Of a stretch of 64,000 nucleotides of DNA, positions 15,895 through 56,240 are shown piece by piece (positions within the stretch are counted from its first letter, which is position 1; every line of letters starts with the position of its first letter). Under the pieces are notes generated by a model that was not told where the DNA came from, ran no database searches, and saw only the letters and a list, made by a program, of their open reading frames with translations. This stretch comes from Oscillospiraceae bacterium (GTDB lineage Bacteria > Bacillota > Clostridia > Oscillospirales > CAG-272), in NCBI GenBank assembly GCA_015064385.1, contig SVSI01000006.1, positions 29,252 to 93,251 on the forward strand, in the 5' to 3' direction. The position numbers and the translations under genes are program-made.

Positions 15895-15949
15895 TTAATC
15901 ATAACCACCCGCTAAGTTGAAGTGGTTTTCTCTAATCAAAAAGTTAAAG

Positions 15950-15974
15950 TGCTTATGATACAATCATAAGCACT
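15950..15974. terminator. Hairpin terminator between convergent genes (overlaps the fucosidase stop)
   Basis: GTGCTTATGA-tacaa-TCATAAGCAC followed by TTTTCT. Confidence 0.5.
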
Positions 15975-29171: not shown

Positions 29172-31460
29172 ATGAAGAACACATTAAAATCTATAATAGC
29201 TCTCACACTCTGCCTTATTGCTCTCGTTGCCTGCAAAAAAAAACACACGCATGAAAACTGCGAGTGGATAGCCGACAATCTCGGGCATTATCTAAGCTGC
29301 TCGGGTGAAAATGAAAGAATAAACGGCGGAGAACATACCGTCGACAAAGATCACATCTGCACGGTATGCGGTGCTGAGGTAATAGCTTTTTCACCCAAAA
29401 ATCTTGAAATTACTGTCTTCAACGAGTTCGGATTCAGAAAGACTTACACGTCTTACTACGGTTCGAATATTGTATATCGTGAGGAAACGAAATTTGAGAA
29501 AAGCGAAAACGATTATACCGGCTACAAAATATACAGCGGCGAAAACCTTGTTGAAGAAGGAAAATTCGCTTCTGTCGGCAAAGATGAGTACGTTTTATCT
29601 CAGAAAATAACGTATGACGCTGACGGCGAGTACAGTATATATCTTTACAACGAGCACGGCGATTACACCAAATGCACCGATTACAATAAAAACGGCAGTG
29701 AGATAAGCGTCACAGAGCGCGAGTTAGTTTACGACGAAAACGGTGTTTGTATTCAAAGAAAGTTTTACGACGACGGCGTTTTATACAGAGATATCATCTA
29801 TGAGGCAACCCCCAGCGGAGAAAGCAGAAAGAAAATCGATACCTATTATTATCCCGACGACACCAAAGAGGTAACATCCTTCAACGAAAAAGAGCTGACA
29901 ACTCTTTCTGCCTTTTATAACGCCGACGGAGATATAATTGAAGAGGTAACCTACGAGTACACCTATGACAAAGACGGAAACGTTATCCTTATAAAAGAGT
30001 ATGAAGGTCCATCTTTGACCGGAGAAAAGGTATTTTCATACACGAGCTATAAATACGCGGATAGTGCCACCTACATATCAAAAGATACCAGATATTACGG
30101 CGAAGAAAAATACGTTTATTTGTATGACGAAAACAACGACGATATCAGCATTACTCAATACGACGCAAACGGCGAGATCGTGCGTCTCAGTGAGTTTGAA
30201 CACACCTACGACGACATCGGAAACCGCATACACGAGAAAGAATTCGTAAACGGCAACCTGACACATGAGTACGAATATTCTTGCCGCGCTGACGATCCCA
30301 CTCATACTTACAGGTCAAAACACGTATATTACGATAAAGACGGATATAAGTACGTTACTTTCTATAACGAACAAGGTCACGTCACAAAGGAGATATACTA
30401 CGATAACGACGGCGAGATAGATTACGAGAGAAATCACGAGTACACCTTCGATAACAAGGGTAATATACTCTCCCAAAAGGAATACATTGACGGCAAACTG
30501 AGCATCGAGTACGAATATTCTTACAAAACAAGCCATCCAAGCGAAACCTATCAGTCAAAGCGCATCGACTACCGCGGCGATTCTACAAAGCGCGTTGAGA
30601 TCTACAATGAGAACCGAGAGACCGTAAGCGCGACCGAATACGACGCCGAAGGAAACGTCACCTACAACTGCACCTTCGAATATGAATACGACGGCAACGG
30701 CAAACTGCTGAAAAGACGTGAGTATGAAAACGGAAGACTTGTCGAGACAAGTGAATACGCTTATTATCCCGACGGTTCGGGAGACACATATTTTAACAAG
30801 CTCATTATGTACTACGAGGATTCCTCCTACCGAATCGTCGTTTACAATACCCGCGGAAGTATTGATTCCGATACCCATTATTTTGCCGACTTCACGAAAC
30901 ATGAAACTATTTACGACGGCAATGGCAATGAGCTTAGCGAAACGTATTACGATGCCGATGGAAATATAAGTGAAAAATACACTTACGAGTACACGCTCGA
31001 TGACAAGAACAATGTTGTATTTGAAAAAGAATACAGGGACGGCAAACTTTATTCAGAAACCGAATATTCATACCGAACCGATGACCCAGATAACGTTTAT
31101 GCATCGCAAAGGATATACTACTATAACGACTTATCAAAAGAAATCGTCAAATACGATGAATACAGTGCAACGGTAAGCGAGGTCGTCTACGACGCTCAAG
31201 GAAACGTAACATTTTCTGCCACGTACGAGAATGAATACGACAACGAGGGCAATTTTCTAAATGAAAAAAAATACGAAGACGGCGTGCTCACCTGCTGGTG
31301 GGAGTATTCGTATTATACAAACGGATACTCGGGAACCTACGTATCAAGGCGTACCGAATATTATGATAACGGAGAGAAGATCGTAACGCTATATTCCGAT
31401 GATAACGAAATTATAAGCAAAACCCATTACGACAAAGACGGGAACGTTATTACCAAATGA
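29172..31460 (+). CDS. Repeat lipoprotein (YD/MORN-variant-like beta-hairpin repeats)
   Basis: 762 aa with signal peptide and lipobox LVAC. A ~90-aa super-repeat is rich in E-Y-x-Y-D-x-x-G-N motifs (FEYEYDGNGKLLKRREYENGRL and similar). Confidence 0.7.
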   Translation: MKNTLKSIIALTLCLIALVACKKKHTHENCEWIADNLGHYLSCSGENERINGGEHTVDKDHICTVCGAEVIAFSPKNLEITVFNEFGFRKTYTSYYGSNIVYREETKFEKSENDYTGYKIYSGENLVEEGKFASVGKDEYVLSQKITYDADGEYSIYLYNEHGDYTKCTDYNKNGSEISVTERELVYDENGVCIQRKFYDDGVLYRDIIYEATPSGESRKKIDTYYYPDDTKEVTSFNEKELTTLSAFYNADGDIIEEVTYEYTYDKDGNVILIKEYEGPSLTGEKVFSYTSYKYADSATYISKDTRYYGEEKYVYLYDENNDDISITQYDANGEIVRLSEFEHTYDDIGNRIHEKEFVNGNLTHEYEYSCRADDPTHTYRSKHVYYDKDGYKYVTFYNEQGHVTKEIYYDNDGEIDYERNHEYTFDNKGNILSQKEYIDGKLSIEYEYSYKTSHPSETYQSKRIDYRGDSTKRVEIYNENRETVSATEYDAEGNVTYNCTFEYEYDGNGKLLKRREYENGRLVETSEYAYYPDGSGDTYFNKLIMYYEDSSYRIVVYNTRGSIDSDTHYFADFTKHETIYDGNGNELSETYYDADGNISEKYTYEYTLDDKNNVVFEKEYRDGKLYSETEYSYRTDDPDNVYASQRIYYYNDLSKEIVKYDEYSATVSEVVYDAQGNVTFSATYENEYDNEGNFLNEKKYEDGVLTCWWEYSYYTNGYSGTYVSRRTEYYDNGEKIVTLYSDDNEIISKTHYDKDGNVITK

Positions 31461-34097: not shown

Positions 34098-34559
34098 TCA
34101 TTTATTTTCCGATTTTTCCTTATCGAACGTCTCTTTTACCGTACCCGATACGGGTGCAGATGCGGGGATCGCGCTCGGCATAGGGCTGTCACAAAGTCCG
34201 AAGCTGACGCTTATCGCATCGTTGACCTGCTTCATAACTCTCTCGTCGAGATGCCCCATTTTTTCTTTAAGACGGCGCTTATCGAGCGTTCTTATCTGCT
34301 CAAGAAGTATTACTGAATTTCTTGACAGACCGTAATTTTCGGCGTCTCCCGTATCGTCACGGCAGACGTCTATATGGGTGGGAAGTCGGTTTTTACCGAG
34401 ACGGCTCGTTATAGCCGCCGCAATAACGGTCGGACTGTATTTATTGCCAACGTCATTTTGTATTATAAGCACAGGGCGAAGTCCTCCCTGCTCCGAGCCG
34501 ATCACAGGGCTGAGATCTGCATAGTATATATCACCGCGTTTTACCGTCACTTTATTCAC
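34098..34559 (-). CDS. mazF: MazF/PemK-family endoribonuclease toxin with a ~35-aa C-terminal extension
   Basis: [31 protein letters not shown] is the canonical MazF N-terminus. The likely start is the GTG at 34550, with GGAG 10 nt upstream. The track start at 34559 is also a GTG. Confidence 0.85.
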
Positions 34560-34764: not shown

Positions 34765-35298
34765 TCAAATAAGCTTTGCCTGGTCAAAGCAGAGCTTTGA
34801 GAGAGCTTTTTTAGATATTACTATCTTCTTTTTATCTCCGAGGAATCCGAAGATCTTTGGATCGGCATTTGTAAAATCAAACAGCACCAGATCGTCTCCC
34901 GCGTCCTCCGCGCTCGATATAAACGATCCTATGACGCCAGACTCACCGTCTTTGTAAAAACGAACGCTGTATTCTTTTTTAGGCAGGTCAAAATCCACGC
35001 TTTCGTTGAAATCCTCGACTACCGTGTCGGGATCCTCGCCGAAAAATCTTATTCTCAAAGGATTTTCGCCGTCCTGAGTATCGAAAAAGAAATAGATATA
35101 TCCGTCAGTCGGGAAAAGTCCGTAGCCGCCAAAATCGGTATAATCGGCAAGAGCTATCTGACACACGAATACCTCGCTCTCCGAAAAGAGCTCCTCGTCA
35201 AACCATTCTCCCGGCACGGTCGGTGAGCCGAAAAATCTGCTGACCGCTTCGTTTTTGCATTTATCCTCTGAAAGAGAGATTATCACTTTATTATTCAT
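34765..35298 (-). CDS. YwqG/DUF1963-like protein (short)
   Basis: 177 aa. SRFFGSPTVPGEW ... FVCQIALADY ... GYIYFFFD resembles the DUF1963 signature. Confidence 0.55.
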   Translation of the reverse strand: MNNKVIISLSEDKCKNEAVSRFFGSPTVPGEWFDEELFSESEVFVCQIALADYTDFGGYGLFPTDGYIYFFFDTQDGENPLRIRFFGEDPDTVVEDFNESVDFDLPKKEYSVRFYKDGESGVIGSFISSAEDAGDDLVLFDFTNADPKIFGFLGDKKKIVISKKALSKLCFDQAKLI

Positions 35299-36761
35299 TT
35301 CGATCTACCTTTTCTCTCTGCAATAAGTTTTTGAACGAATATCGCTATAACTCCCAGGCAGGCAAAGCACATAAGCACGAGAGTCATATTGACTATAAGC
35401 ACCGTTCTTCCCGACATCTTCCCGAGATCACTCGGACTCGTAATATCGAGATCGCTCTCCCACGCGTTCTCGCCTGACGTACCTCCCATAGGAAGCACTT
35501 GCGGTCTTGACGCGCCGCACTCTGTACAAACGCTTGTGGTTATGATCTCGGAGCCGTCCCCTATCTGAGTGTAGTTATGCTCGAGCATAGGGATCTCCTC
35601 AACGTACGAATCCCCGCAGACACAGGTGAATTTCTTTCGTCCGCTCGAGGTGCAGTCTGCTTTTTTCTCGATAACCTCGGTATAAAAATGCTCGGTCTTG
35701 GCAACGTGATGTTCTCTGCGTTCAACGTGACATTCGCGACATTTTCTGTAAGTATATCCGGGCACGGTACACGTCGGCTCTATAACCGTATCCTCAAAGT
35801 CGTGCGGAACGAGCTCAAGAGAGATCTCGCTCATAAGAAAGCCGCACTGCGTACAGTAAACGCTTTCGCTTCCGTGCTTCTGGCAGGTGGATTCAATAAC
35901 CGTTTTTTCTCCTGCCGTATGGGGTACGGTATCGGTATAGTCTCTGCGCTCGGTAAAGTCACAGCCGTCACGCAGACATTTATATTCGGTATATCCCCTC
36001 TGTGAGCAGGTGGGCTCAACGATATTTATTCCATCAAGTCCCGGCTCGTGCCCGAGCGGTGCCTCACCCTCCACTATACTCGGGAGATGGCATCTTTTAC
36101 ACTCGTATATCTCGTATCCGTACTGAGTACAGTCGGGCTCTACCGTACGCACGAGCTCGTTGTCGTGACCGAGAGCATCGTCCTTTTTATTCCTAGTATA
36201 TTCGCCGCACTTAGTACATTTTTCGACCGTGTATCCGTTTTCGGTACAGGTGGGGGACACCGTGCTTTCAACCTTGTAGTCGTGATCGCACGTAACGCTT
36301 ATCATACCCGTGGTAACGCTTGCGGAAACGCCGGTAACGGTAGCGTTTATCATATTATCGGATACCGCAACCGTTCCCTGACTCTTGAAATAAACGGTGC
36401 ATACCGTTCCGCTGAGCTTCAGCGAGCTGCTGCCCGCCTTTATCTTGATATTGTACGGGTTTCCCGCGGTAACGCTTCCGTAGCTTTTTACCGAGCTTGC
36501 AAACTCGGTCTTTTCTATTGCAAATCGGATATTGTTATAGGTGAGCGATATATCTATGCTCTTTCCCGCGGAAAGCGTTACGCCCGATATATCTATCGGT
36601 ATTTTATAATAACCCGAGCTATCGGTGCTTTGCGCGCTTCCGATAACTACGCTTGCGCCCGCCGCGTGCGACGGAAGGATCGCCAGAGTGAGTGCAACAA
36701 CGATAACTGCGAGCGAAAGGACCGCCATAAGCGTCCGCTTTATGCCGCGCATTTTGTTCAT
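35295..36761 (-). CDS. Membrane-anchored secreted protein: N-terminal beta-sandwich (cohesin-like?) domain + ~7 His/Cys3 modules + C-terminal TM helix
   Basis: ORF track extends to 36767 (GTG). The ATG at 36761 has GGAGG 9 nt upstream. A signal peptide is present. Repeated modules include SPTCTENGYTVEKCTKCG, PDCTQYGYEIYECKRC and PTCTVPGYTYRKCREC. The C-terminal hydrophobic anchor is followed by KLIAERKGRSK. Confidence 0.7.
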   Translation of the reverse strand: MNKMRGIKRTLMAVLSLAVIVVALTLAILPSHAAGASVVIGSAQSTDSSGYYKIPIDISGVTLSAGKSIDISLTYNNIRFAIEKTEFASSVKSYGSVTAGNPYNIKIKAGSSSLKLSGTVCTVYFKSQGTVAVSDNMINATVTGVSASVTTGMISVTCDHDYKVESTVSPTCTENGYTVEKCTKCGEYTRNKKDDALGHDNELVRTVEPDCTQYGYEIYECKRCHLPSIVEGEAPLGHEPGLDGINIVEPTCSQRGYTEYKCLRDGCDFTERRDYTDTVPHTAGEKTVIESTCQKHGSESVYCTQCGFLMSEISLELVPHDFEDTVIEPTCTVPGYTYRKCRECHVERREHHVAKTEHFYTEVIEKKADCTSSGRKKFTCVCGDSYVEEIPMLEHNYTQIGDGSEIITTSVCTECGASRPQVLPMGGTSGENAWESDLDITSPSDLGKMSGRTVLIVNMTLVLMCFACLGVIAIFVQKLIAERKGRSK

Positions 36762-36836
36762 ACACACTCACCTCCGTAATTTTATATAAAAATTATAACA
36801 TACATACCCTGAAATTGCAATAGTGCAAAAGAGTTT

Positions 36837-37766
36837 TTACAAATTATTCTTTGACTGTATTTTTTTGAAAAATCGGAAGGTCATAGGCCAGACCACGCCC
36901 GCAAATATTACGAGCACGAAATATCTTATCGCGTGAGCGATATTATGTCCCGAAAAAATAGCGTTCAGGGGTGCTTTCAGAACGCTTTTGAGCGCAAGTG
37001 CGATCGCAAGTCCGAGAGAAAGCTTTATTATCTGAACCGAAACCGTCGCTTTCGTATCAAATTTTACGTACTTTTTATCAAAAAAGTATATAAGCGGAAA
37101 AGCGAGCACCGCGCCGAGGAGCGAGTACGCGTTTTTGAGTCCCGACTTATAGTTCTCGGGATCTATATCGGCAGGAAAACTATAAAACTCAACGTAGCAA
37201 AGGTATGCCGAAACGATAGCTATCGTGATAAAGGTCAGAATATACATTGCCTTTTCGTTTTCAAACGCCTTTGAAATTATCGGATATACCAAAAAAACGA
37301 GCAGTATTCCGAGAGCGATCGAAACGAGGACGTCAAGCGGAGTATGAACGCCGAGATACATTCTCGATACCGCGGTAAGCAGTATCGCAGACAGCGACAG
37401 ACAGACCACCCATATCTTTTTTCTGAAAAAGAGTCCTATCGAGCCGAATATTCCGACTGCGTTCTGAGTGTGCCCGCTCGGGAAAGAGTATCCGCCCGCG
37501 TCCGCTCTTGCAGACTCGACTATCGTAAAATTTTTATCCCTTACCCAAGGGCGCTCTACTTTGAAGGCGAGCTTCAAAAACTGATTTAAGGTTATACCGA
37601 GAAATCCGGTAAAAAGCAAATAATAGCCCGCTTTTTTATTCACGCACCAGTATATAAAAAGAGCTATTGCGAGAAACGCCGCTTCACTGCCGAGGTGAGT
37701 TATAAACGAAAAAAATGCGTCTAGCACGGGATTTCTTATCGACTCAAAAAAATAAAGAAGCTTCAT
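36837..37766 (-). CDS. PAP2-family phosphatase (membrane) with extra C-terminal TM segments
   Basis: 309 aa with KxxxxxxRP-like (FKVERPW), SFPSGHT and SRMYLGVHTPLD motifs. Confidence 0.75.
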   Translation of the reverse strand: MKLLYFFESIRNPVLDAFFSFITHLGSEAAFLAIALFIYWCVNKKAGYYLLFTGFLGITLNQFLKLAFKVERPWVRDKNFTIVESARADAGGYSFPSGHTQNAVGIFGSIGLFFRKKIWVVCLSLSAILLTAVSRMYLGVHTPLDVLVSIALGILLVFLVYPIISKAFENEKAMYILTFITIAIVSAYLCYVEFYSFPADIDPENYKSGLKNAYSLLGAVLAFPLIYFFDKKYVKFDTKATVSVQIIKLSLGLAIALALKSVLKAPLNAIFSGHNIAHAIRYFVLVIFAGVVWPMTFRFFKKIQSKNNL

Positions 37767-37773
37767 ATACGGT

Positions 37774-38619
37774 CTATCTCCTTATAACTGCGCCGAGAAG
37801 TGAAAATATCGCGTAAACAGCTATATTTACCGCAACGATCGTCGCGCCCGCTGGAGTGGATGCCATTATGGTTATTAAAAGTCCGACCAGCACGCAGAAG
37901 ACCGATATTGCCGCCGCACAGATCGTTACCGCCCTAAAGCTCTTGAACACTCGCATAGCGGAGATGGAGGGAAAAACGATAAGTGCGGACACGAGCAGCG
38001 CTCCGACGAGGTTCATTGCAAGAACTATCACGACGGCACCGATCACCGCTATAAAAGTATTGTATAAGGAGACCTTTACACCCGTTGCCGAGGAGAAATC
38101 CTCGTCAAAGGTAACTGCGAAGATCTTATTGTAAAACAGGATAAATACCCCGATCACGACCAGCGAGAGCAGTGCGCAGAGTATGACGTCAAAGCCGGTG
38201 AGAGATATTATCTTGACCGAGCCGAAAAGCGTTCCGCACACGTCGCCGCTCACGTTCGACGAGGTCGAGAAAATGCTGGTGAGCAAATATCCGACGGCAA
38301 GCGCGCCGACCGAGATCATAGCGATAGCCGCGTCCGATTTTACCTTTGAATTTTTACTGAGGCGGAGCAGTATCACCGCCGCCGCAACGGTAACGGGCAA
38401 AACCACAACCATCTCGCTTACTACTCCGAGAACTGCCGCCACGGTCATTGCACCGAAGGCGACGTGTGAAAGTCCGTCCCCTATCATAGAATACCGCTTG
38501 AGCACGAGAACAACCCCGAGAAGCGAGGAGGAAAGCGCTATCAGAACACCCGCTATGAGTGCGTAGCGCACGAAATCCATTTCGAGATAAAGAGAGATCT
38601 TACCGAAAAATTCACTCAT
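37774..38619 (-). CDS. znuB: Metal (zinc) ABC transporter permease
   Basis: 281-aa polytopic ABC-3 family permease in the operon with znuC and znuA. Confidence 0.75.
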   Translation of the reverse strand: MSEFFGKISLYLEMDFVRYALIAGVLIALSSSLLGVVLVLKRYSMIGDGLSHVAFGAMTVAAVLGVVSEMVVVLPVTVAAAVILLRLSKNSKVKSDAAIAMISVGALAVGYLLTSIFSTSSNVSGDVCGTLFGSVKIISLTGFDVILCALLSLVVIGVFILFYNKIFAVTFDEDFSSATGVKVSLYNTFIAVIGAVVIVLAMNLVGALLVSALIVFPSISAMRVFKSFRAVTICAAAISVFCVLVGLLITIMASTPAGATIVAVNIAVYAIFSLLGAVIRR

Positions 38620-39337
38620 TCTCGCCCGACCTCCTTTCGTTTTTGCCTATAAAACGGATTGCGGTCTCGGAGGTTATATAGTCACTCGTTTTGCCGAAAA
38701 ACAGGGGCTTTTCGCCAAGGTGAAGTATGTGCGTTGAATATTTCAGTGCCGCCTCTATATCGTGAGATATCATAACCACGGTTATTTTACAGTTTTTGCT
38801 GAGATCCTCGATAAGAGCGTACATCTCGGCACTTACCTTCGGATCAAGTCCGGCTACCGGCTCGTCCAGAAGGAGCATCTGCCCTGTTGCACAGAGCGCT
38901 CTTGCAAGCAGAACTCTCTGCTGCTGTCCGCCCGAGAGCTCTCTGTAACATCTTGACGAGAGATCCTTTATTCCGAGGCGCTCCATATTCACAGCCGCGC
39001 GCTGTTTTTCCCTTGCACCGTAAAAGGGACGCGCTCCGCAGTCGCCAAGACATCCCGAAAGCACGATCTCCTTGACGGTAGCGGGAAAATCCCTTTGACT
39101 CGTGCTCTGCTGAGGGAGATATCCGATAGACCTTTGAGAAAGTCCGTCCGAAAAGATCACTTCCCCGCTGTGCGGCTTTTTAAGACCGAGGAGCGTTTTC
39201 ATTAGCGTAGTCTTTCCCGAGCCGTTTTCACCGATAATGCAAAGATAGTCACCGCGCTCTACGCTGAAGCTCAGATCACTTACTATCGTTTTGCCCTCGT
39301 AGGCAAGAGATACGTTTTTACATTCAAGCAGTGCCAT
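38612..39337 (-). CDS. znuC: Metal (zinc) ABC transporter ATP-binding protein
   Basis: Walker A GENGSGKTT, signature LSGGQQQR, Walker B LLLDEP. Confidence 0.85.
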   Translation of the reverse strand: MALLECKNVSLAYEGKTIVSDLSFSVERGDYLCIIGENGSGKTTLMKTLLGLKKPHSGEVIFSDGLSQRSIGYLPQQSTSQRDFPATVKEIVLSGCLGDCGARPFYGAREKQRAAVNMERLGIKDLSSRCYRELSGGQQQRVLLARALCATGQMLLLDEPVAGLDPKVSAEMYALIEDLSKNCKITVVMISHDIEAALKYSTHILHLGEKPLFFGKTSDYITSETAIRFIGKNERRSGENE

Positions 39338-39338
39338 A

Positions 39339-40298
39339 TTACACCATCGCCTTTCTGAACGCCTCGAGATTTTTGCGCATTGCAGAAAGATAGGTAAGAC
39401 CGCCGTCTATATCCTTTCTGCTCACGCTTTGCAGTGAATTTACGCTTTCCGAGGTTATCTGCGTATCGCCCACCTCGTTTTTAAGGGTATCTATTATATT
39501 TACTCCGCTTTTTTCAAGAGTGAGAAGGACCTTCGTGCCGCTACTCTTTATATCGGACGCAAGGCGTCTTACCGTTTCAAAGGACGCTCCCGTTTCTGTG
39601 GAGCAGCCGTCAAAGGCAGCAGAGTAATTTATACCGTAGTCGTTTGTCATATAGAGAAACGGAAATCTGTCGGCAAAAACGAGATAATTGATTTTTGCCG
39701 AATTTACCGTTTCTTCGTAATCTTCATCAAGCTCGGAGAGCTTTTCCTTATACGCTTTTGCGTTTTCTCTGTAAACCTCGGCAGCGTCGGGATCGATCAC
39801 GCAAAGCTCCTTACAGATCGCATCGCACATAAGAGACGCTCTTTTGGGAGAGAGCCATATATGCTCGTCACACTCGTGTGAGTTATCCTCCCCGTGCGTG
39901 TGTCCGTCACCTTCGTGACAAAGAGTTTCGCCCACCTCGTTTATAAGGCGCAAAACGCGTATATTTTCGGCATTCTTATCGTCGAGCATCTCGTCAACCC
40001 ATTTTTCCGACTCGCCTCCGATACAGATAAAGAGTTCACTCGAGAGTATATTGAGCTTATCCGACGCACTTACAGAATTTGCATAGCTGTGCATATCGCT
40101 TCCGTTTTCGAGAAGGTATATGACGTCGAAATCTTCAGCTTTTTCGCCGAGTATATTGAGTGTAAAATCGTACTGTGCAAAAGCACTGCAAACTATTTTT
40201 CTTTTGCCGCTCCTACCGTCCGAGCACGATACAAGGCAAGTAAGTCCTGCGACGAGTGCGAGCAGCAAAACGTATGATATATATTTTCTTATCTTCAT
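39339..40298 (-). CDS. znuA: Zinc ABC transporter substrate-binding lipoprotein
   Basis: ORF track extends to 40385, overlapping zur. The ATG at 40298 has AAAGGAAA upstream. Lipobox LVSC. The His/acidic-rich loop HEGDGHTHGEDNSHECDEH is typical of ZnuA. Confidence 0.8.
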   Translation of the reverse strand: MKIRKYISYVLLLALVAGLTCLVSCSDGRSGKRKIVCSAFAQYDFTLNILGEKAEDFDVIYLLENGSDMHSYANSVSASDKLNILSSELFICIGGESEKWVDEMLDDKNAENIRVLRLINEVGETLCHEGDGHTHGEDNSHECDEHIWLSPKRASLMCDAICKELCVIDPDAAEVYRENAKAYKEKLSELDEDYEETVNSAKINYLVFADRFPFLYMTNDYGINYSAAFDGCSTETGASFETVRRLASDIKSSGTKVLLTLEKSGVNIIDTLKNEVGDTQITSESVNSLQSVSRKDIDGGLTYLSAMRKNLEAFRKAMV

Positions 40299-40318
40299 AA
40301 ATTTTTCCTTTTGAGTTC

Positions 40319-40723
40319 TCAAAGCGAGCATTTTTCGCAGACACCGACGATGGTCGGTCTTTTTTCGTCTATATTGAAGTGGCACCTTTTCACCATTTCA
40401 AAAATGCTTTTTTCCGCCTCCTCGTCCTCAAGATGGCATATCTGACCGCATTTCGTACACTTTATATGGATATGCTCTGCGCACGAGCACTCTCCCGTGT
40501 ATCTGTAAACGAGAAAGCGTCCGTCGGGAGACGCGGAGCGCTCCGCCTTGCCCGCTTCAACGAGTCGGGAAAGAATACGGTAAACGGTACTTTCGTTTAT
40601 TTTGAGAGCGGGATTTTTATTTACGCAAAGCTCGGTCAGCTCTCTAGCGGAAAACTGTCTGTCCGGCTCATTTTCAAGAATTTTTATAAGGGTCCTTCTC
40701 TGCTCGGTATCGTAGGTCTTCAC
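40319..40723 (-). CDS. zur: Fur-family metalloregulator, probably Zur
   Basis: 134 aa, GTG start, N-terminal wHTH, and CxxC...CxxC pairs (CTKCG ... CEKC). It sits directly upstream of znuACB. Confidence 0.7.
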   Translation of the reverse strand: MKTYDTEQRRTLIKILENEPDRQFSARELTELCVNKNPALKINESTVYRILSRLVEAGKAERSASPDGRFLVYRYTGECSCAEHIHIKCTKCGQICHLEDEEAEKSIFEMVKRCHFNIDEKRPTIVGVCEKCSL

Positions 40724-41715: not shown

Positions 41716-43401
41716 TTATTCGCCGAATTGGTTTCTTTCTCTTGCTTTAATAACAAGGAAAAGCGCTATACCCGAAAGTATCAGAACAATACCGGCTATC
41801 AAGAATACAACGAGAAGCGTGTTAGACTCTACTTTAGGGATCTCATTTCTCTCTGTGTGACCACATTCGGAGCATTCCCTAATTTTCATACCGGTCTCCT
41901 TTTTTGTTGCTTCCTTTTCGGTAGTCCATTCGCCGTAAACGTGTTCTCTTACCTTTCTTTCGTCACCGCAAACGTTACATTCCGTATCGCAGTCGTTATC
42001 GTAGGTGTGCGAGATTGCCTTAATTATCTCCTGTGCCTCGACCACCTCACCGCAAACGGTACATTTTTTACCGTCGGTAAGTCCGTCCTCGGTACACGTT
42101 GCGGCTTTGCCGTCAATTATTTCTTCAGTATGTGCTATCTTATCGATCACCTTCTGCTCAAGCGTGATCTGCTGGCAGACGGTGCATTTCTTTCCGTCGC
42201 TGAGGCCTTCCTCGGTACAGCTTGCCGCCTTTCCGGGAATGGTCTCTTCTGTATGAGCAACAGTCTCAACGACCTTTTGCTCTACGGTCATTTTTCCGCA
42301 AACAGAGCATTTCTTTCCTTCGGTAAGACCGGTCTCGGTGCAGGTCGCTTCCTTGGCGGCAACAACCTCTTCAATGTGATCTATCATCGGAATCGTGTCT
42401 TGCTTAACGGTAACAACGCCGCAAGTACGGCATTTCTTACCCGCGGTAAGACCGGTGGAGCTACAAGTAGCTTCCTTTGCGGAAAGAGTTTTTTCGTTGT
42501 GTCCCTTTGCGGGTACTACGTTTTGGGCAAGAGACGCATCGCATCTCGAGCAATGCCAGCCCTCTGTAAGGCCGGTCTCGGTGCAGGTCGCGGAAAGTGC
42601 CGCATCGACTATCTTATCGTGTCCCTTTGCAGGTACTACGTTCTGGGCAAGAGACGCATCACATCTCGAGCAATGCCAGCCCTCTGTAAGGCCGGTCTCG
42701 GTGCAGGTCGCTTCCTTTGCGTTTTCCACTATCTTATCGTGTCCCTTCGCGGGTACAACTTCTTGCTTAACGAGTATTTTCTCACACATCGAGCAATGCT
42801 TGCCTTCGGTAAGTCCCGTATCAAGACAAGACGGCTCTACCGCACTGTCAATGACCTCGGTATGCTTATGAGTAGCCCAATCTATGGATTTTATCTTCAG
42901 GGCGCTTCCCGTAATGGTAAAATCTTCCGATTCGTCGGGCATCATAGTATTCTTCTTGTTGGTCTCTACGGATACGTTAACTTCGCCTTCATAACCCGTA
43001 GCTGCCTTAAACTTAAGAACAACTACCGTGCCGCTCTTTGAATATACGGGAGGATTCTTTCCCATAGCCGTCATGGGATCGCCTACGGTAACCTTTACAA
43101 AGTTTTCGTTTGCACGCTTGTTGACGGTCACGTCATCCTCGGCAAACACACTTGTATCTTTAGAACATCCTTCGTAAGAAACCTGACTCGGATCAAAGGC
43201 AACGTTCACGATCGAAAGCACAAAACCCGAATTTTCAGAAAGAGAAACGGTAACATCAAAGGTCTCCCCCGCTCCCACGATGGAGTCTTTCGACTCCACC
43301 GTGTAAGCGATATTATTTCCACTTGCAAATACCGACAAAGAAAGACAGAACAACAATTGCACAATGAAAAGTATCAGTAAAAATCTTTTGCTTTTCATCA
43401 T
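41716..43401 (-). CDS. Membrane-anchored secreted protein: cohesin-like domain + ~7 His/Cys3 modules + C-terminal TM helix
   Basis: 561 aa with signal peptide. Cohesin-like sequence: [34 protein letters not shown]. Module example: [42 protein letters not shown] anchor: [33 protein letters not shown], 21 nt after the upstream gene. Confidence 0.75.
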
Positions 43402-43422
43402 CTATTCCTCCTTTGGTCGAAA

Positions 43423-46400
43423 TTAAGCTACGAGATCTTCCCAACCGAGATCAAGCATATCGTCGTAACCCTTGCTACCTACGATATATTCGCATATAGC
43501 TTTAAGGTCAGCTACGGTGATCTCTCCGTCCTTATCAACGTCAACGGTAACGTCATAGCTGGGCTCGATCTCGCCGGTTATGATCTTGCTGACCATAAGA
43601 GCGTCTGCCATATTTACGTCGCCGTCGTTATCAACGTCCATATACTTAACGATATCTATCGACTCGATCTCGCCTGCGCTACCGATAAGATCGCCTGCGT
43701 TGTTGCGCGCCTCGCAGTTAACGAAGCTGAACTCTGCGTTTATGATCTTAGTGTTGGTACCGTCATTGTTGTAGTTCTCGATCTCTGCATTATCAATGCG
43801 GAAGTAGAGCTCTACGAAAGCTTCGGAACCGTCAATGGTAACGTTCTGGGTTGCTTTATTCTCGTCGTTAGGAACACTTGCAAGAACGTTTACGACACCG
43901 TTCTTGGCGTGTGCCATAGGATTGGTGGTAAAGTTTGTGCTGATGAACTTAGCTTCAACGAAGGACATAACCTTTTCGTCGTAATCAAGTCCGAAGTTAA
44001 TACCCCAAACGTCAACTGCCTCTTCAAGAGACTCGATGGAGATCTTAACTACAACGATAGAGGAATCGGAATAGTCTGCGCCGCTTACGACAGCGTTGTC
44101 GATATCAAGAACGTACTTGATCTTGATCTCTTCAACAACTCTCTGTTCCGTTTCGCCGCAGATGATGCACTCGCGCTCTTCCATGATCTCGTTGTCATAC
44201 TCGTCAGAGGGGATCTCTATCCACTGACCCCAGGTATGGTCTGCAAGGTATTGGTCGTTTACGTTGGTAACCTTGCTCCACTCGCAGTTAACGCAAACTA
44301 CGAGGTCGTATCCGTATTCGTGACAAGTAGCGTCAACGTGGATAGGTCCTACGGTCTCGTGAGTATCGCCAACTTCTCCGCAGAGAATGTCATTACCGCT
44401 TGCATCCTTGCCTACAACAGCTACGCAGAAACGATCCTCAGTATCGCACTTGATCAGCTCGCCTGCCGCATTTTTGTGTCCGATTGCGGGAACCTCTTCC
44501 TGAGGAACGGTGAATACATCGCACACGCTACACTGCTTTCCGGCGGTAAGTCCGGTATTTTCGCAGTCGGGAGCAACTGCGGGTACGTCAACTTCAGTAT
44601 GTCCGAGGGCAGGAACATATCTGTTTATGTACTCGTAGTCGCAGTCAGGGCATTCCCAGTGCTGGTAACCGTATCCGAGACAGTCTGCTTCATCCCCGTC
44701 TGTAGCACCCATATATTTATGGTTGAGGGCGGATCTTACGGTTTTCTGCTCGTCGCCGCAAACCTTACAAATTCTATGGTTTTCATATCCTGCTTCTTCG
44801 CAAGTGGGGGCAAGGTTAAGGGGGTCCTGATCCTCGTAGTCATGCTCTGCTACGATCGTTGCGCCATCGTATTCGTCGTGAATTATGCCGCAAACACTGT
44901 TCTTACATACCCAAAGAGCTTTGGTTCCGTCAGTACCGGTCTTGCAGTCTGCGGGAACCTCTGCGGTCTTATCCCAGTCGTGATCAAGGTAGTAATCGAT
45001 GAGCTCGCCACACTTGGTGCACTTGAAAACACCCTTGGTGGTCTCGCCGTCGCCGCAAACAGTATCTTCAACCTCTCCGGTCTGATCATATTTTTCGTCG
45101 TCAATGTGTCCGTCACCGGTACCTTCAATAACGATGAGAACGTTCTTACCGCAGTCAGCACATTCGTGGCTATAGTAGCCGTTTAATGCGCAGCTTCCCT
45201 CACGGAAGATTTCCTTATTAGCGGTATTAAGGTTTACGTGATCCTTGAGGGCATCTTCAATGCTCATATAATACTTATCTTCTGTATCGACCTTGGGAAG
45301 CTCGTCCTTTTTGCCCATTGCTCCGCAGTTGTCGCACTTGGTTTCGGTGTATCCGCCTGCAATACAGTTGGGGGCAACTACTACTCCGGTCTCGAGATAG
45401 TTGTGTCCGAGAGCTTTCTTTTCGGTGGTCTGATCCTCGGTCACGTCACAACGGGAGCACTTAACGGTAATGACCTCGTCGTTTTCGCAATCCTGAGGAG
45501 TCTTGATCGTAACGTTTGCCGCGATCGAAGCATCAAAATCATGTCCAAGAGGATCTATGACAACAAGAGCTTCGTGCTCGTTACAGTCCACGCAGAAACC
45601 GATCGCGTTACCGGGTTCCGTGCAGGTAGGTGCATTTACTTTTCCGCTAATTATGTTATGGTTGTTTTTGTCATAAGAACTTCCAACCTCGCACTTTATA
45701 AGCTTAACGCTTGCGCCGTTAACGGTAACGTCGTAAGAAACCCCGTCCTTTACATACTCGGACTTAGCACCAAGAGGACAGTTATCGTCAGAGCAGTAAA
45801 CGAAGGTATATCCGTATTTCGAGCAGGTAGGATCAACAGTTACGGAAACCTCGGTGTGTCCGGTTGCGAGAAGAACTTCCTCGCGAGCAGCACCACAATC
45901 GCCGCAGTTCCAGGTTACAAGACCGTTAGTGGTGCAGTTTGCATCCTGCTTTACAACGTTTTTGCTCTTTGCGTTACGCGCCTTTTCGGCATCACTTGCA
46001 TCGTCGCTGCTCGTCCAGTTGGTATGGCCGAGAGGAGCAACGGGGTTGGTCTGCTTTACGTGTCCGCAAACGGTACAAGCATAAACGTCAAAACCCCAAG
46101 CGGTACAGGTGGGAGCGATAGTGACCGGTTTATCGTCCTCAAAGGAATGTCCGGTGGGTTCAACGGTAACCTGAACCTTTTCTCCGCAACGTCCGCACTT
46201 TACCTTTTTCCAGCCCTCTCCGGTACAGGTGGAGGGGAATTCTTCTACAACTTCAATGTTGCTACCCTCGGTAACGTGTCCGAGAGCTTCAACGGTAATA
46301 ATATAATTGCCGTTCTCATCCTTTGCAACCTCTACGGTTGCGTTTACGTCTGCATAGTAGTTTTCGCAGTCAGCACAGCTCCAGTAAGCGATCTTGCCGG

Positions 46401-47091
46401 CGGTGGTGCAGGTAGCTTCTACCGCCTTGTGCTCGGTAAGACCGTGTATGTGCATACACTCGGGAAGGATGGTAACGTTCTTGGTCGCGCCGCATTTTTT
46501 GCACGCGTAAACTGCAATTCCGGGCTCACCGGTAACGAAATCGGGCTCTTTGTCAATCTTAACGGGGCTATCGGACCAGGTATGTCCCTGTCCTTTAAGT
46601 TCCTCTTCAACGTTATAGTCGCATCTCGAGCAGGTAGTGATCTTTACGCCGCCTTCTTCGCAGTCATAATCTTCGTTGACCTGGTAGTCGTGATCGAGCG
46701 CAGGAATATCACTTCCGTCGTTTTCGGGATCAACTTTATTACAGATCGAGCAAACTATCAGCGCTTTTTGACCTTTTTCGGTACAAGTAGCCGGTTTTGC
46801 CTCTTCTTTGGTTTCCCAATCGTGGCTTCCCTCTATTTTGTTGAAATTAGCAGCAAAATAGTCGTCACAGTCGGGACACTGATAAAGGGTGTAGCCGTAT
46901 TCGCCGCATACGCTGGGTACGACCTCCACCTTCATTTTCTCGATCTCAGCTTCAGTGAAGAGACCAAGAGTGTGTTCTTCGCCCTGTCCGGGGCAATTCG
47001 TCTCACCTGCTTCTGCAGCAAGCACCGACATCGGCAGAACAGAAGCGATCATAAGACATGCGAGAAAAATAGCTAAAATTCTCTTCTTCAT
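43423..47091 (-). CDS. Large secreted protein: ~20 His/Cys3 modules + cohesin-like domain + C-terminal dockerin
   Basis: 1222 aa with signal peptide MKKRILAIFLACLMIASVLPMSVLA. Modules include PTCTAWGFDVYACTVCG and STCTGEGWKKVKCGRCG. The C-terminal duplicated Ca-binding loops DVDNDGDVNMAD and DVDKDGEITVAD match dockerin type. Confidence 0.75.
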   Translation of the reverse strand: MKKRILAIFLACLMIASVLPMSVLAAEAGETNCPGQGEEHTLGLFTEAEIEKMKVEVVPSVCGEYGYTLYQCPDCDDYFAANFNKIEGSHDWETKEEAKPATCTEKGQKALIVCSICNKVDPENDGSDIPALDHDYQVNEDYDCEEGGVKITTCSRCDYNVEEELKGQGHTWSDSPVKIDKEPDFVTGEPGIAVYACKKCGATKNVTILPECMHIHGLTEHKAVEATCTTAGKIAYWSCADCENYYADVNATVEVAKDENGNYIITVEALGHVTEGSNIEVVEEFPSTCTGEGWKKVKCGRCGEKVQVTVEPTGHSFEDDKPVTIAPTCTAWGFDVYACTVCGHVKQTNPVAPLGHTNWTSSDDASDAEKARNAKSKNVVKQDANCTTNGLVTWNCGDCGAAREEVLLATGHTEVSVTVDPTCSKYGYTFVYCSDDNCPLGAKSEYVKDGVSYDVTVNGASVKLIKCEVGSSYDKNNHNIISGKVNAPTCTEPGNAIGFCVDCNEHEALVVIDPLGHDFDASIAANVTIKTPQDCENDEVITVKCSRCDVTEDQTTEKKALGHNYLETGVVVAPNCIAGGYTETKCDNCGAMGKKDELPKVDTEDKYYMSIEDALKDHVNLNTANKEIFREGSCALNGYYSHECADCGKNVLIVIEGTGDGHIDDEKYDQTGEVEDTVCGDGETTKGVFKCTKCGELIDYYLDHDWDKTAEVPADCKTGTDGTKALWVCKNSVCGIIHDEYDGATIVAEHDYEDQDPLNLAPTCEEAGYENHRICKVCGDEQKTVRSALNHKYMGATDGDEADCLGYGYQHWECPDCDYEYINRYVPALGHTEVDVPAVAPDCENTGLTAGKQCSVCDVFTVPQEEVPAIGHKNAAGELIKCDTEDRFCVAVVGKDASGNDILCGEVGDTHETVGPIHVDATCHEYGYDLVVCVNCEWSKVTNVNDQYLADHTWGQWIEIPSDEYDNEIMEERECIICGETEQRVVEEIKIKYVLDIDNAVVSGADYSDSSIVVVKISIESLEEAVDVWGINFGLDYDEKVMSFVEAKFISTNFTTNPMAHAKNGVVNVLASVPNDENKATQNVTIDGSEAFVELYFRIDNAEIENYNNDGTNTKIINAEFSFVNCEARNNAGDLIGSAGEIESIDIVKYMDVDNDGDVNMADALMVSKIITGEIEPSYDVTVDVDKDGEITVADLKAICEYIVGSKGYDDMLDLGWEDLVA

Positions 47092-47236
47092 TGTTTTTTT
47101 CCTTTCATTATTAAATATTGTAATTTCCTGAGTTGTTTTTCAAACGCAGCTACGGTGGCCGTATTCTTTTTGACTTTTTTTTGAGCATTTCCATCTAAAC
47201 CTTCCCTCTCTTATATAATCAACCGTGAGAAAATTA

Positions 47237-47258
47237 CCACATAATCGATATTATGTGG
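47237..47258. repeat. Left inverted repeat (IRL) / putative recombinase core site
   Basis: CCACATAA-TCGATA-TTATGTGG. This is the exact reverse complement of the site at 47511-47532. Confidence 0.85.
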
Positions 47259-47510
47259 TAGAAACGGCAGGCAATGAAGAATACGACCGCTTTTACAAAC
47301 AAAAAAGGCATAACGACAAAACCAATGAAAAAAGGGGAACTGCTCATTGGTTTTTTAGTCATGCTCAAATTAAAGTAAATTTTATGTGTTTGTGGGTTTT
47401 ATGTGAAGATTTGCCAAAAAATATGTTTTTTCACTACATATATCTGTATTATTTTTTTCAAAAAGGTATTGACAAAACACAATTTATAGTGTATAATCCA
47501 TAGTGAGTTT
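47259..47510. other. Putative invertible DNA segment (252 bp, AT-rich) carrying a consensus promoter
   Basis: Bounded by exact 22-bp inverted repeats, contains TTGACA-17-TATAAT, and is adjacent to a tyrosine recombinase gene. The 92-aa ORF inside (47225-47503) has no SD and is low-complexity. Confidence 0.6.
47469..47497 (+). promoter_or_regulatory. Consensus sigma-A promoter inside the invertible segment (currently pointing away from the surface-protein operon)
   Basis: TTGACA (47469-47474), exactly 17 nt, TATAAT (47492-47497). Confidence 0.65.
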
Positions 47511-47532
47511 CCACATAATATCGATTATGTGG
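47511..47532. repeat. Right inverted repeat (IRR) / putative recombinase core site
   Basis: CCACATAA-TATCGA-TTATGTGG. It abuts the recombinase stop codon (47533-47535). Confidence 0.85.
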
Positions 47533-48372
47533 TTAACACCTCAAAAGCCCGAGCTTTTGTATCTGTTTGCGGTGTATTTCTCCGCTTTCAACGGTATATA
47601 TGCGGGTGGTATTAACACTTGAATGACCAAGGATATCGGCTAAACGCACGATATCCTTTTGTATTGTATAATAGGTTCGTGCAAAAAGGTGCCTGAGATT
47701 ATGCGGAAACACCTTCTTTTCGGAGACGTTCGCCTTTTTGCAGAGCTTTTTCATCTCACTCCATATATTCGATCTATCGAGCGCTTTTCCGTTTTTGGTA
47801 ACAAAAACGGATCCGCTCGTTATTTTTTGCTCTTTCAGATATCTTTTCAGGATCACGCAAAGCTGATTGGGCAAAAACACCGTCCGCCTCTTGCCCTTAC
47901 ATCTTATCTCTGCGCGCTTTGATTCTATTGAGGAGACCGTTATATACTTAAGCTCTGAAACCCGTATTCCGGTAGAACAGATCGTCTGCATAACGAAATA
48001 AATACGCTTGTTTTTAGAGTGCTCCGCTACGCTGAGAAGTCTTTCATATTCGGACTTTGTAAGCTCCTTTTCGCTCGTTGAAAACATTTGTCTTTGTACT
48101 TTCACCGTCTTTATTTTCAGATCGTACCATCCGTTAAAGCTAAAAAAGCTGTTCAGTGAAGATATTATGGAATTAACGCTGGCACAAGAATATTCCGAAA
48201 TAATCTTTTCTTTATATTTCAGCACCGTGTCCTTGGTCAGGCAAGCGTCCGGTATCCACAAGCAAAATTCACGCAGATCGCGAAAATATTTTTCAAGTGT
48301 TGCAGGAGATTTTTCTTCATTGATCAGATGTCTCTTATAGTCGGCTATAATTTTGTCTGTGATTCTTTTCAT
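47533..48372 (-). CDS. Tyrosine site-specific recombinase (XerC/D-like, candidate invertase)
   Basis: 279 aa. Catalytic pattern: STGIRVSEL (Arg), KGKRR (Lys), HNLRHLFA (HxxR), GHSSVNTTRIY (His...Tyr). The gene is visibly more AT-rich than its neighbours. Confidence 0.85.
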   Translation of the reverse strand: MKRITDKIIADYKRHLINEEKSPATLEKYFRDLREFCLWIPDACLTKDTVLKYKEKIISEYSCASVNSIISSLNSFFSFNGWYDLKIKTVKVQRQMFSTSEKELTKSEYERLLSVAEHSKNKRIYFVMQTICSTGIRVSELKYITVSSIESKRAEIRCKGKRRTVFLPNQLCVILKRYLKEQKITSGSVFVTKNGKALDRSNIWSEMKKLCKKANVSEKKVFPHNLRHLFARTYYTIQKDIVRLADILGHSSVNTTRIYTVESGEIHRKQIQKLGLLRC

Positions 48373-54704: not shown

Positions 54705-56240
54705 ATGAAAGCTTCTACTGCGATCTTACTCGCTTTTTTGCTTGCGTTTTTCCTGTTTTCGTGTAAAAACTCTCAAAACGAAGCTCCTTCTCTGCCCGCT
54801 GTCACCTCTCCGGAGGAGAATGTGCCCGAAAACGGAGAAAAGATGTTTTTCGACGAAAACGGAAACCTTCAAAAAATAATAAGATACGAAAACGGAAAGA
54901 TCTTATCTATCCGAGAATACTCGCCCGAGGGTGTTTATCTGCGATACACCGAGTACACCGATTACGGTCATTTTACCGAGGAAAAGCAGGATGGCGACGT
55001 TACCTCAAAGATAAGCTTCTTTGATAAAAATTCACTCCTTACCGAGGTGATTTCTTATTTCTACCACGATAACGGAGTTATCTCGCGTGAAATGGCGTAT
55101 GCCTCTGACGGATCACTCAAGGGAGTGTGGTATTTCGACGTCACAGGAGTCAACAACGAAACCGACTTCTACCGCCTTGAAAACGGAAAATACGTTTTCG
55201 ATGAAAAGGCAAAATATTTCTGCACCGAGGACGGTGCTCCCGAGAAAACTCTTTTCTATACGGAAAATCAGCTCCTCACCTCTGAGATACGCTATAATGC
55301 CGCAGGTGATATTGAAAAAGTCGTTTATTACGGTAGTGATGGAGAAATTTCAAGCTACACCATTTTCGTATATTCGGAAAGCGGCTTGCTTACGGGCGAG
55401 AGCTCATACAGCGGACTTGACGTCATAACGTCACAGCTTCTCTATAACGAAAACGGCGAAAAGCTCTCCTTTACGAGCTATTTTGAAAGCGGACTGCCCG
55501 CCCTTATTTATAATTACAGCGGCGGCATACTTTCAGAAATACTGCGCTGCGACGACAGCGGAAACGTCACCTGCACAGAATTTTTTGATGAAAATTCCAC
55601 ACGCACGGGCGTGACCTTCTACAATAGTGACGGCTCTTTCCTTATCTGCGATGCAAGCTACAATCCGATAAGCGGCACGAAATACACTACGGATTTGTAC
55701 GGCGGATATACAAAGACGGTCTATAAGGACTCGGAAATTTGCGAGGAGACCGTCTCTCGGGACGGAATAAATATCGACAGTATCCGTACCTTTGACGAGC
55801 TTGGCTTCGTTTCGCAGGAAATACTATACACCGGCGGACGATTTGACGTAAAGATAAATTATGAGAGAGACACGCAGGGCGAGGTCCTGAGCTACACGGA
55901 ATACTCCTTAAACGGAACAACCCTCACCTACTCGCCCGACGGAAATATAATTTCGGGAACGAAATACGTTTACTCCAAGGGCACGCTGTACAAGGTCGTC
56001 GAGTACGAAAACTCGGTAGTATCCAAGGAAACGATGTACTCTTCGGGCGCTATCGTACTGATATCGCTCTACGACGAAAACGGCGAGATCTCCAAGGAGA
56101 GCTTCTACTCTGCCGCGGGTAAGCTGAGCCGCGTGAGAGAATACGACGAAAACGGCGTGTTGAGAAAAGACACGTTATATAACGAGAGAGGAAAAGTCTC
56201 GTCGGTTACAAAATACGATGAAAAAGGAAACAAAATATAA
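54705..56240 (+). CDS. Repeat lipoprotein (MORN-variant/YD-like repeats), paralogous in style to 29172-31460
   Basis: 511 aa with lipobox LFSC. Contains repeated Y-x-E-N-G / Y-D-E-N-G beta-hairpin-type motifs. Confidence 0.7.
   Translation: MKASTAILLAFLLAFFLFSCKNSQNEAPSLPAVTSPEENVPENGEKMFFDENGNLQKIIRYENGKILSIREYSPEGVYLRYTEYTDYGHFTEEKQDGDVTSKISFFDKNSLLTEVISYFYHDNGVISREMAYASDGSLKGVWYFDVTGVNNETDFYRLENGKYVFDEKAKYFCTEDGAPEKTLFYTENQLLTSEIRYNAAGDIEKVVYYGSDGEISSYTIFVYSESGLLTGESSYSGLDVITSQLLYNENGEKLSFTSYFESGLPALIYNYSGGILSEILRCDDSGNVTCTEFFDENSTRTGVTFYNSDGSFLICDASYNPISGTKYTTDLYGGYTKTVYKDSEICEETVSRDGINIDSIRTFDELGFVSQEILYTGGRFDVKINYERDTQGEVLSYTEYSLNGTTLTYSPDGNIISGTKYVYSKGTLYKVVEYENSVVSKETMYSSGAIVLISLYDENGEISKESFYSAAGKLSRVREYDENGVLRKDTLYNERGKVSSVTKYDEKGNKI

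Follow-up and report, generated by a model that had tools for sequence, protein, structure and literature searches.

The 64-kb stretch of DNA analysed here (the window; contig SVSI01000006.1 of assembly GCA_015064385.1, positions 29,252 to 93,251 of the forward strand) comes from an uncultured gut Clostridia bacterium, and all statements about its genome refer to those 64 kb. Our subject is a two-gene cohesin-dockerin module on the minus strand, together with the invertible promoter segment upstream of it. The first gene, which we call the fibre (or cargo) gene (43423-47091), encodes a 1222-aa protein consisting of a signal peptide, at least 16 repeats with a Cys3His motif, a cohesin and a dockerin. 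It is followed by the anchor gene (41716-43401), whose 561-aa product comprises a signal peptide, a cohesin, seven Cys3His repeats, terminal Cys modules, a membrane helix and a basic tail. The N-termini of both proteins are signal-peptide-like. The TAA stop codon of the fibre gene (43423-43425) and the ATG of the anchor gene at 43401 are separated by a spacer (43402-43422, minus strand; tttcgaccAAGGAGGaataga), which holds an AAGGAGG ribosome-binding site and in which no terminator-like site was predicted. This agrees with an earlier note on this DNA, which had placed the second gene 21 nt downstream with its own Shine-Dalgarno sequence.

Scans against Pfam and NCBIfam gave no match to a glycoside hydrolase, a carbohydrate-binding module or any other enzyme in either protein, so that the pair lacks glycoside hydrolase modules, as had been suggested. 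Local hidden Markov models (HMMs) of the fibre cohesin, the dockerin and the anchor cohesin were run on the open reading frames (ORFs) of the window and of every fetched locus, and in the window they revealed no cohesin or dockerin beyond the pair. Dockerin-bearing glycoside hydrolases on a scaffoldin, the hallmark of a cellulosome or amylosome, were found neither in the pair nor in the window. The proposal of a non-cellulosomal use of cohesin and dockerin holds for the gene pair and the 64-kb window, and we restrict it to these.

C-terminal modules of the fibre protein

The dockerin was located at residues 1150-1203 (43483-43644, minus strand), where two F-hand Ca-binding segments are followed by a conserved C-terminal tail reaching to 43426. 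Pfam Dockerin_1 (PF00404) matched the full-length fibre protein with 36.5 bits (cut-off 22.9, E 5.6e-9) and its C-terminal fragment with 39.6 bits, and both 12-residue loops (DVDNDGDVNMAD and DVDKDGEITVAD), as read from the sequence, carry D at positions 1, 3, 5 and 12. In the AlphaFold2 (AF2) model the loops are followed by helices at protein residues 1161-1172 and 1193-1203 (177-188 and 209-219 of the modelled fragment), and the best sequence matches of the fibre C-terminus in the PDB are solved dockerins. The Pfam score, the intact Ca loops and the PDB matches together indicate that the duplicated dockerin which the earlier note had seen at this end of the protein is real and correctly placed. 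Judged by its sequence, it is a genuine type I-like dockerin with putative Ca-dependent binding. In an alignment of 35 fibre-family C-terminal regions (A2), Dockerin_1 was matched by 33 members, and the first dockerin segment is degenerate in some members of the family.

Just before the dockerin, and joined to it without a linker, lies a domain spanning residues ~991-1148 (43648-44121, minus strand). A word-indexed homologue search with the fibre C-terminus returned one fragment only, and an exhaustive HMMER search with residues 985-1150 yielded 83 cluster representatives, mostly of ~1000-1500 aa; in 73 of 82 fibre relatives, the domain start lies ~206-262 residues from the C-terminal end. Pfam Cohesin (PF00963) was matched by 14 of the 35 A2 members (best E 3.6e-7), and the A2 profile recovered from the PDB dockerins and, ranked below them, cohesins over profile positions 26-149. 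The AF2 model of residues 985-1222 reached a predicted local distance difference test score (pLDDT) of 93.3 and a predicted template modelling score (pTM) of 0.89, and its top 35 PDB matches in Foldseek were all cohesins, with template modelling (TM) scores on the target of up to 0.82. These results confirmed the suspected cohesin-like domain ahead of the dockerin, which has, on the evidence of the model, a cohesin fold. The last cohesin strand continues directly into the dockerin, so that the two modules form a rigid, linkerless dyad in the model. The domain was also considered as the X module of an X-dockerin, which is an immunoglobulin-like (Ig-like) module preceding the dockerin. This identification was rejected on fold, the Foldseek matches being cohesins and only the tight fusion being alike, and it was kept as a functional alternative, which is weighed below.

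The anchor protein

The N-terminal domain of the anchor protein was delimited by its modelled strands, the family profile and Foldseek to residues 29-173 (42883-43317, minus strand), close to the 42891-43320 given in the earlier note for a cohesin-like domain of the downstream gene. The isolated domain retrieved nothing with phmmer against the PDB or in a word-indexed homologue search, and the full-length protein gave more than 7000 matches driven by its Cys-rich repeats. Among 120 matches listed, 26 proteins, including the anchor itself, share its N-terminal domain and architecture. An alignment of 25 such N-termini (A1; the window protein and 24 homologues of the same architecture) contained 17 members that match PF00963 (best E 3.2e-10), and cohesins topped the list when its profile was compared with the PDB (3l8q, 5.6e-6; 4uyp_A, 4.2e-5). 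The AF2 model built on A1 had a mean pLDDT of 92, and its top 45 Foldseek matches in the PDB were all cohesins (E down to 7e-9, TM on target up to 0.72). We consider the domain, on these profile and model data, to be a divergent but genuine cohesin. The models of the fibre and anchor domains, whose top Foldseek results are cohesins only, are consistent with the cohesin jelly-roll, a nine-stranded beta fold, that had been expected of them.

The cohesin is followed by a stalk (residues 192-~520, 41842-42828, minus strand) of seven 40-41-residue Cys3His repeats and two Cys-rich units, and then by a 23-residue transmembrane helix (residues 529-551, 41749-41817, minus strand; Kyte-Doolittle 19-residue mean 3.06) with a 10-residue basic tail. 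The protein shows neither an S-layer homology (SLH) match nor an LPXTG motif and thus lacks the classical signals of an anchoring scaffoldin (SLH repeats, sortase LPXTG), so the C-terminal helix takes their place, as had been read from the DNA before. All 26 anchor relatives carry the C-terminal membrane helix and basic tail and none an LPXTG motif, and no such helix was found in any of 73 full-length fibre relatives. The helix, the basic tail and the signal peptide point to a type I membrane topology for the anchor, which would present its cohesin on the distal end of the stalk; the fibre itself would be unanchored.

Conservation of the gene pair and partner assignment

The gene pair was compared across 11 independent loci in which upstream DNA is present (the window, L001, L002, L003, L004, L008, L009, L010, L012, L013 and L014; a related-locus search with a narrower alignment gave three loci). 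A gene ending in cohesin-dockerin directly precedes the anchor gene in 11/11 of them, at a distance of 13-61 nt in the other ten as against 21 nt in the window. The modules of these loci share 22-87% identity with those of the window, and the genes on either side of the pair vary widely. This strict linkage, together with the split into an anchored and an unanchored protein, is the main argument for the adjacent cohesin as the receptor of the dockerin. From linkage and topology, we infer that the fibre dockerin binds the cohesin of the neighbouring anchor protein.

The same arrangement might arise if the two genes were co-regulated and their products were not partners: the anchor cohesin would then take up other dockerin proteins, possibly enzymes, and the fibre dockerin another scaffoldin, the pair being one piece of a more extensive system resembling a cellulosome or amylosome. 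Such a view draws on the limited extent of the visible genome (64 kb), on a mirror-tree comparison that gave no specific signal, and on ruminococcal relatives, whose genomes, according to parts of PMC13463774, may contain dozens of dockerin genes as well as cohesins held by a membrane helix. However, the pair stays adjacent at every locus although none of the surrounding genes is constant, the two families seem to occur together and have complementary topologies, and the window holds no other dockerin or cohesin, all of which makes this explanation improbable.

It is also conceivable that the two folds no longer interact: the dockerin would bind Ca in a stabilising role, the cohesins would serve as generic beta-sandwich spacers or bind ligands, and the adjacency would go back only to shared repeat ancestry. 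The degenerate first dockerin segment in some family members would fit this, as would the widespread non-cellulosomal dockerins and cohesins of unknown function that Peer et al. reportedly described in 2009. Yet both Ca loops are intact in the window, 33 of 35 aligned relatives retain a Pfam-significant dockerin, and without interaction the strict conservation of the pair and its anchored/unanchored split would be hard to explain. We regard this possibility as very improbable, and retain the anchor cohesin as the presumed receptor.

Role of the fibre cohesin

Comparison of the A2 and A1 profiles with hhalign gave a probability of 94% (E 1e-7) at 13% identity in the profile alignment, which relates the fibre cohesin to that of the anchor. 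What the fibre cohesin does at the end of the fibre can be read in more than one way. It may act as an X-module-like rigid support, as in type II/III X-dockerins, which stabilises the dockerin and enlarges its contact with the anchor cohesin; chaining would then not occur and each anchor would hold one fibre. The absence of a linker after the last cohesin strand, the pTM of the two-domain model, the constant placement of the domain start relative to the C-terminus in the family and the X-dockerin entries 4wi0_B, 4u3s_B and 2b59_B among the sequence matches all point in this direction. They are countered by the fold, which is that of a cohesin and not of an Ig-like X module, by the homology to the anchor cohesin and by single cohesin-dockerin adaptors such as ScaC of R. 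flavefaciens, which do use their cohesin (as stated in passages of PMC13463774). On balance we find a purely supporting role somewhat unlikely.

At the other extreme, the fibre could polymerise with itself through its own cohesin and dockerin, the anchor serving only to nucleate or cap the polymer, which corresponds to the chaining idea of the earlier note. Both modules are intact in one fibre chain, and a non-cellulosomal cohesin of Archaeoglobus fulgidus (2xdh), found among the structural matches of the fibre domain, provides a precedent; that protein has both a cohesin and a dockerin in a single chain. Nevertheless, the fibre and anchor cohesins are very divergent, with no significant pairwise similarity, which suggests different specificities; a given dockerin as a rule recognises a single type of cohesin. 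The geometry is a further objection. To judge from the domain order, both modules sit without a linker at the C-terminal end of the fibre, so that chaining would run through the C-terminal ends and give a spine with ~950-residue side arms and not an end-to-end fibre; the term 'head-to-tail' in the earlier note is inexact in this respect. Although monovalent adaptors may, as proposed in PMC13463774, give rise to fibre-like structures, self-polymerisation as the principal mode of assembly seems to us rather unlikely, and we continue with the docking of the fibre on the anchor as the preferred reading.

A relative of 915 aa (P0003) was observed to combine an N-terminal Pfam cohesin, a long repeat run and a C-terminal dockerin in one chain. 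This architecture, unlike that of the window fibre, could chain head to tail.

Cys3His repeats

The fibre and anchor proteins share a repeat unit of ~40 residues, C-x4-G-x4-5-C-x2-C-x12-20-[GD]-H, which recurs in a 490-aa membrane protein encoded nearby. Listing of the motif gave seven units in the anchor, at least 16 in the fibre (residues 62-983, 44143-46908, minus strand) and at least four in the 490-aa protein. No Pfam model exists for the repeat. The fibre repeat region matched the IgA protease of Thomasclavelia ramosa in the PDB (9qa6_A, chain residues 852-979, E 2.6e-6), and the matched region is its zinc-binding domain ZBD1 (PMC12237041). In ZBD1 and ZBD2, structural zinc at the subdomain interfaces is predicted, not experimentally resolved, to be held by Cys and His; the domains are without disulfides, zinc would stiffen the chain, and the authors suggest a possibly novel metal-binding fold (PMC12237041). 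The two ZBDs adjoin the cell-surface anchor of the protease (PMC12237041). In view of the ZBD1 match and this prediction, the repeats are best read as putative zinc-stabilised stalk beads.

The units of the T. ramosa protease are sequence-related to the fibre repeats and likewise lie by a surface anchor, and in both cases zinc binding is predicted. The protease has two to three subdomains per ZBD beside its catalytic part, whereas seven to more than 16 units make up the bulk of the proteins described here. In the more than 7000 database proteins that carry it, the repeat accompanies surface domains such as cohesin, dockerin, SLH, LRR_5 and Big_2, and the predicted ZBD1 and ZBD2 are its only structural context. 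It appears to be a common stalk module, as yet undescribed, of surface proteins in Clostridia.

The invertible-promoter switch

Upstream of the fibre gene, a gene for a tyrosine site-specific recombinase of 279 aa (47533-48372, minus strand; Pfam Phage_integrase 102 bits, Phage_int_SAM_1 32.6 bits) is separated from it by a segment of 252 bp (47259-47510) between two inverted-repeat arms. The recombinase-side arm (47511-47533; CCACATAATATCGATTATGTGGT) is 23 nt long, abuts the recombinase stop codon and is 100% complementary to the fibre-gene-side arm (47236-47258), also 23 nt. The arm motif occurs at its two sites only in the 64 kb, where none would be expected by chance. Within the segment, a predicted consensus sigma-70-type promoter (47469-47497, plus strand; TTGACA-17-TATAAT, 12/12 matches) faces away from the fibre gene, which corresponds to the OFF orientation.

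The core of the repeat is kept in L001, L003, L008 and L009, and in these four loci, as in the window, a predicted promoter adjoins one of the arms and is directed outward. In L001, a relative with conserved synteny, this promoter is located beside the arm nearest the fibre gene and reads into that gene (ON); in L003, L008 and L009 an 11/12 promoter points in the OFF direction. The window segment aligns to L001 only when inverted (111.5 vs 5.0), and the flank outside it is collinear. A recombinase occupies the equivalent position in L001, L012 and L016; ORFs of 279 and 312 aa are found there in L008 and L009, outside the Pfam scan, and in L003 the upstream gene is cut by the contig end, so that its identity as a recombinase is presumed. 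In L012, the recombinase is present and inverted repeats were not detected.

Inverted repeats thus flank a short segment beside a site-specific recombinase gene, and the predicted internal promoter would drive the downstream genes in one orientation only. Based on this anatomy, which the earlier note had put forward as a putative phase switch over the pair, we take the switch to be real at the level of sequence. Reads across the junction ...CCGTGAGAAAATT-[arm]-AAACTCACTATGG... would mark switching within a population.

Several further elements were observed in or near such segments. A 21-nt imperfect hairpin (GCATAACGACAAAACCAATGA / TCATTGGTTTTTTAGTCATGC; 47308-47364) inside the segment is kept in L001 (3992-4046), with a similar one in L008 (3835-3909), and may be a terminator or a binding site of the switch. 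An ORF of 92 aa (47225-47503, plus strand), annotated as a gene of 82 aa in L016, an identical contig, fills the segment and is probably spurious. L001 carries, at 15833-17031, a second tyrosine recombinase followed by a 24-nt inverted-repeat pair (16728-16751 and 17008-17031, 256 nt apart) ahead of another gene; at the matching position the window has a MazF/PemK toxin gene (34098-34559).

Neighbouring genes

Just downstream of the fibre/anchor pair, an uninterrupted string of seven genes on the same strand (34765-40723, minus strand) encodes a Fur/Zur-family regulator, ZnuA, an ABC ATPase, an ABC-3 permease, a PAP2 phosphatase, the 490-aa protein and a 177-aa protein without a Pfam match. 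The string is found in the same order in L001 (9748-15725), and the linkage is absent in more distant loci. A zinc-uptake operon beside proteins that possibly need dozens of structural zinc ions could represent a functional link.

The 490-aa Cys3His-repeat membrane protein (35295-36767, minus strand) had been counted in the earlier note as the third of three local cohesin-like proteins. The fibre and anchor domains bore out this view, and the N-terminal domain of the 490-aa protein is at most a candidate cohesin: it had no Pfam or PDB match, and hhalign related it to the anchor family with a probability of 42% (E 2.6e-4, 69 columns) and to the fibre family with 0.8%. Pairwise BLASTP among the three putative cohesins revealed no significant similarity. 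PADLOC gave no defence-system match for the fibre, anchor, recombinase, 490-aa and 177-aa proteins. Elsewhere in the window, a 762-aa protein (29172-31460, plus strand) with a faint RHS_repeat match and a 511-aa protein (54705-56240, plus strand) with sub-threshold MORN_2 and DUF2963 matches are unrelated to the cohesin and dockerin HMMs.

Discussion

We propose that recombinase, invertible promoter, fibre gene and anchor gene form a four-part, phase-variable surface-display cassette, in which the fibre dockerin plugs into the anchor cohesin, and we give this reading a probability of roughly 65%. In the proposed mechanism, the anchor would be held in the membrane by its C-terminal helix, and its stalk of Cys3His beads would carry the single cohesin outward through the cell wall. 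The fibre would be secreted and docked by its C-terminal dockerin, in a Ca-dependent manner, on this cohesin, displaying a non-enzymatic arm of ~950 residues of bead repeats at the cell surface. The fibre cohesin, held rigidly with the dockerin, would remain free at the junction to receive a further dockerin, either of another fibre or of another protein, and further fibres would build up a C-terminal daisy chain or brush. Both genes would be transcribed from the promoter in the 252-bp segment, which points away from them in the window, and inversion by the adjacent recombinase would turn them ON together. Adhesion, aggregation and variation of a target of phages or of immunity (antibodies) are candidate biological roles.

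Several observations weigh against this proposal. The window cohesins themselves fall below the Pfam cohesin threshold, PF00963 giving no match at E<=0.1 for the fibre, anchor or 490-aa protein. In the mirror-tree analysis, the dockerin distances correlated about equally with those of the anchor cohesin (r = 0.75) and of the fibre cohesin (r = 0.74), with partial correlations of 0.35 for both, so the test did not discriminate between the two as partner of the dockerin. The linkerless fusion and the rigid model (pTM 0.89) imply that the fibre cohesin may serve mainly as structural support, and other dockerin or cohesin partners may be encoded in the genome beyond the 64-kb window. As for the switch, opposite orientations were seen between species only (window vs L001), the same-strain contig L016 is identical and OFF, and neither the ON nor the OFF junction of this strain gave any match (0 each) in the metagenome scans, which are hence uninformative.

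Several known systems resemble parts of the proposed cassette. CwpV of Clostridioides difficile is a large repetitive surface protein downstream of an invertible switch controlled by RecV, which gives rise to ON and OFF subpopulations; it is a single protein held by CWB2 domains, and its switch acts through a leader terminator. In both cases a tyrosine recombinase inverts, or would invert, a short element flanked by inverted repeats before a large repetitive surface protein. Unlike that of CwpV, the window switch carries the promoter itself, and attachment would use a separate cohesin-bearing membrane protein.

ScaE and ScaC of R. flavefaciens offer a parallel for the docking step, as a cell-bound single cohesin receives the dockerin of a protein with one cohesin and one dockerin, and the ScaC cohesin (5lxv) is among the best Foldseek matches of both the anchor and the fibre cohesins. 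In contrast to this system, the anchor in the window uses a C-terminal membrane helix and not sortase/LPXTG, and the adaptor has a ~950-residue Cys3His arm and a linkerless cohesin-dockerin, with no glycoside hydrolases in the pair and an invertible promoter upstream. An established non-cellulosomal pair from a gut Clostridium is the NagJ cohesin and NagH dockerin of C. perfringens (PDB 2jh2, 2o4e, 2ozn). The NagJ cohesin is the top structural match of the anchor domain and has the highest TM score for the fibre domain in Foldseek. The C. perfringens modules join secreted glycoside hydrolases, whereas those of the window would join a non-enzymatic repeat fibre to a membrane stalk.

Proteins with a single cohesin and a C-terminal membrane helix, like the window anchor, are described in passages of PMC11557425 and PMC13463774 for Lachnoclostridium sp. 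MSJ-17, H. luporum, C. cibarium, R. difficilis and R. sp. HUN007. According to these passages, they were proposed as anchoring scaffoldins for dockerin proteins on the bilayer, few of their partners are known, and a number of the hosts are presumed to be non-cellulolytic. In the window, by contrast, a partner is indicated by the strictly conserved adjacent gene, and the same passages make no mention of a Cys3His stalk or a phase switch for the surveyed cohesins. In a full-text literature search, no paper was found in which dockerin or cohesin occurs together with phase variation or an invertible element. Four features appear to be new here: a module of two strictly linked genes, a fibre and stalk of Cys3His repeats, the linkerless dyad and the control by an invertible promoter.

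A still bolder interpretation would see in the locus an undescribed, self-contained surface organelle of uncultured gut Clostridia, in which a Ca-dependent chain of dyads nucleated on the stalk, each with a rigid arm of ~950 residues, forms an enzyme-free brush of zinc beads under invertible-promoter control and with its zinc supplied by Zur-ZnuABC. We think it unlikely that all of this holds; if it did, the organism would possess a coat that is switched ON and OFF for adhesion, aggregation or escape from phages or IgA.

Cohesin and dockerin are the textbook plug and socket of cellulosomes. To our knowledge, their roles outside polysaccharide degradation are poorly understood, and most helix-anchored 'orphan' cohesins are without a known partner. 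The locus presented here is a minimal, genetically linked pair, for which the partner assignment can be tested with two recombinant domains and which, if confirmed, could be used as an orthogonal, compact display system for Gram-positive anaerobes. Moreover, it would tie cohesin-dockerin display to phase variation and give a context to the very widespread and undescribed Cys3His repeat.

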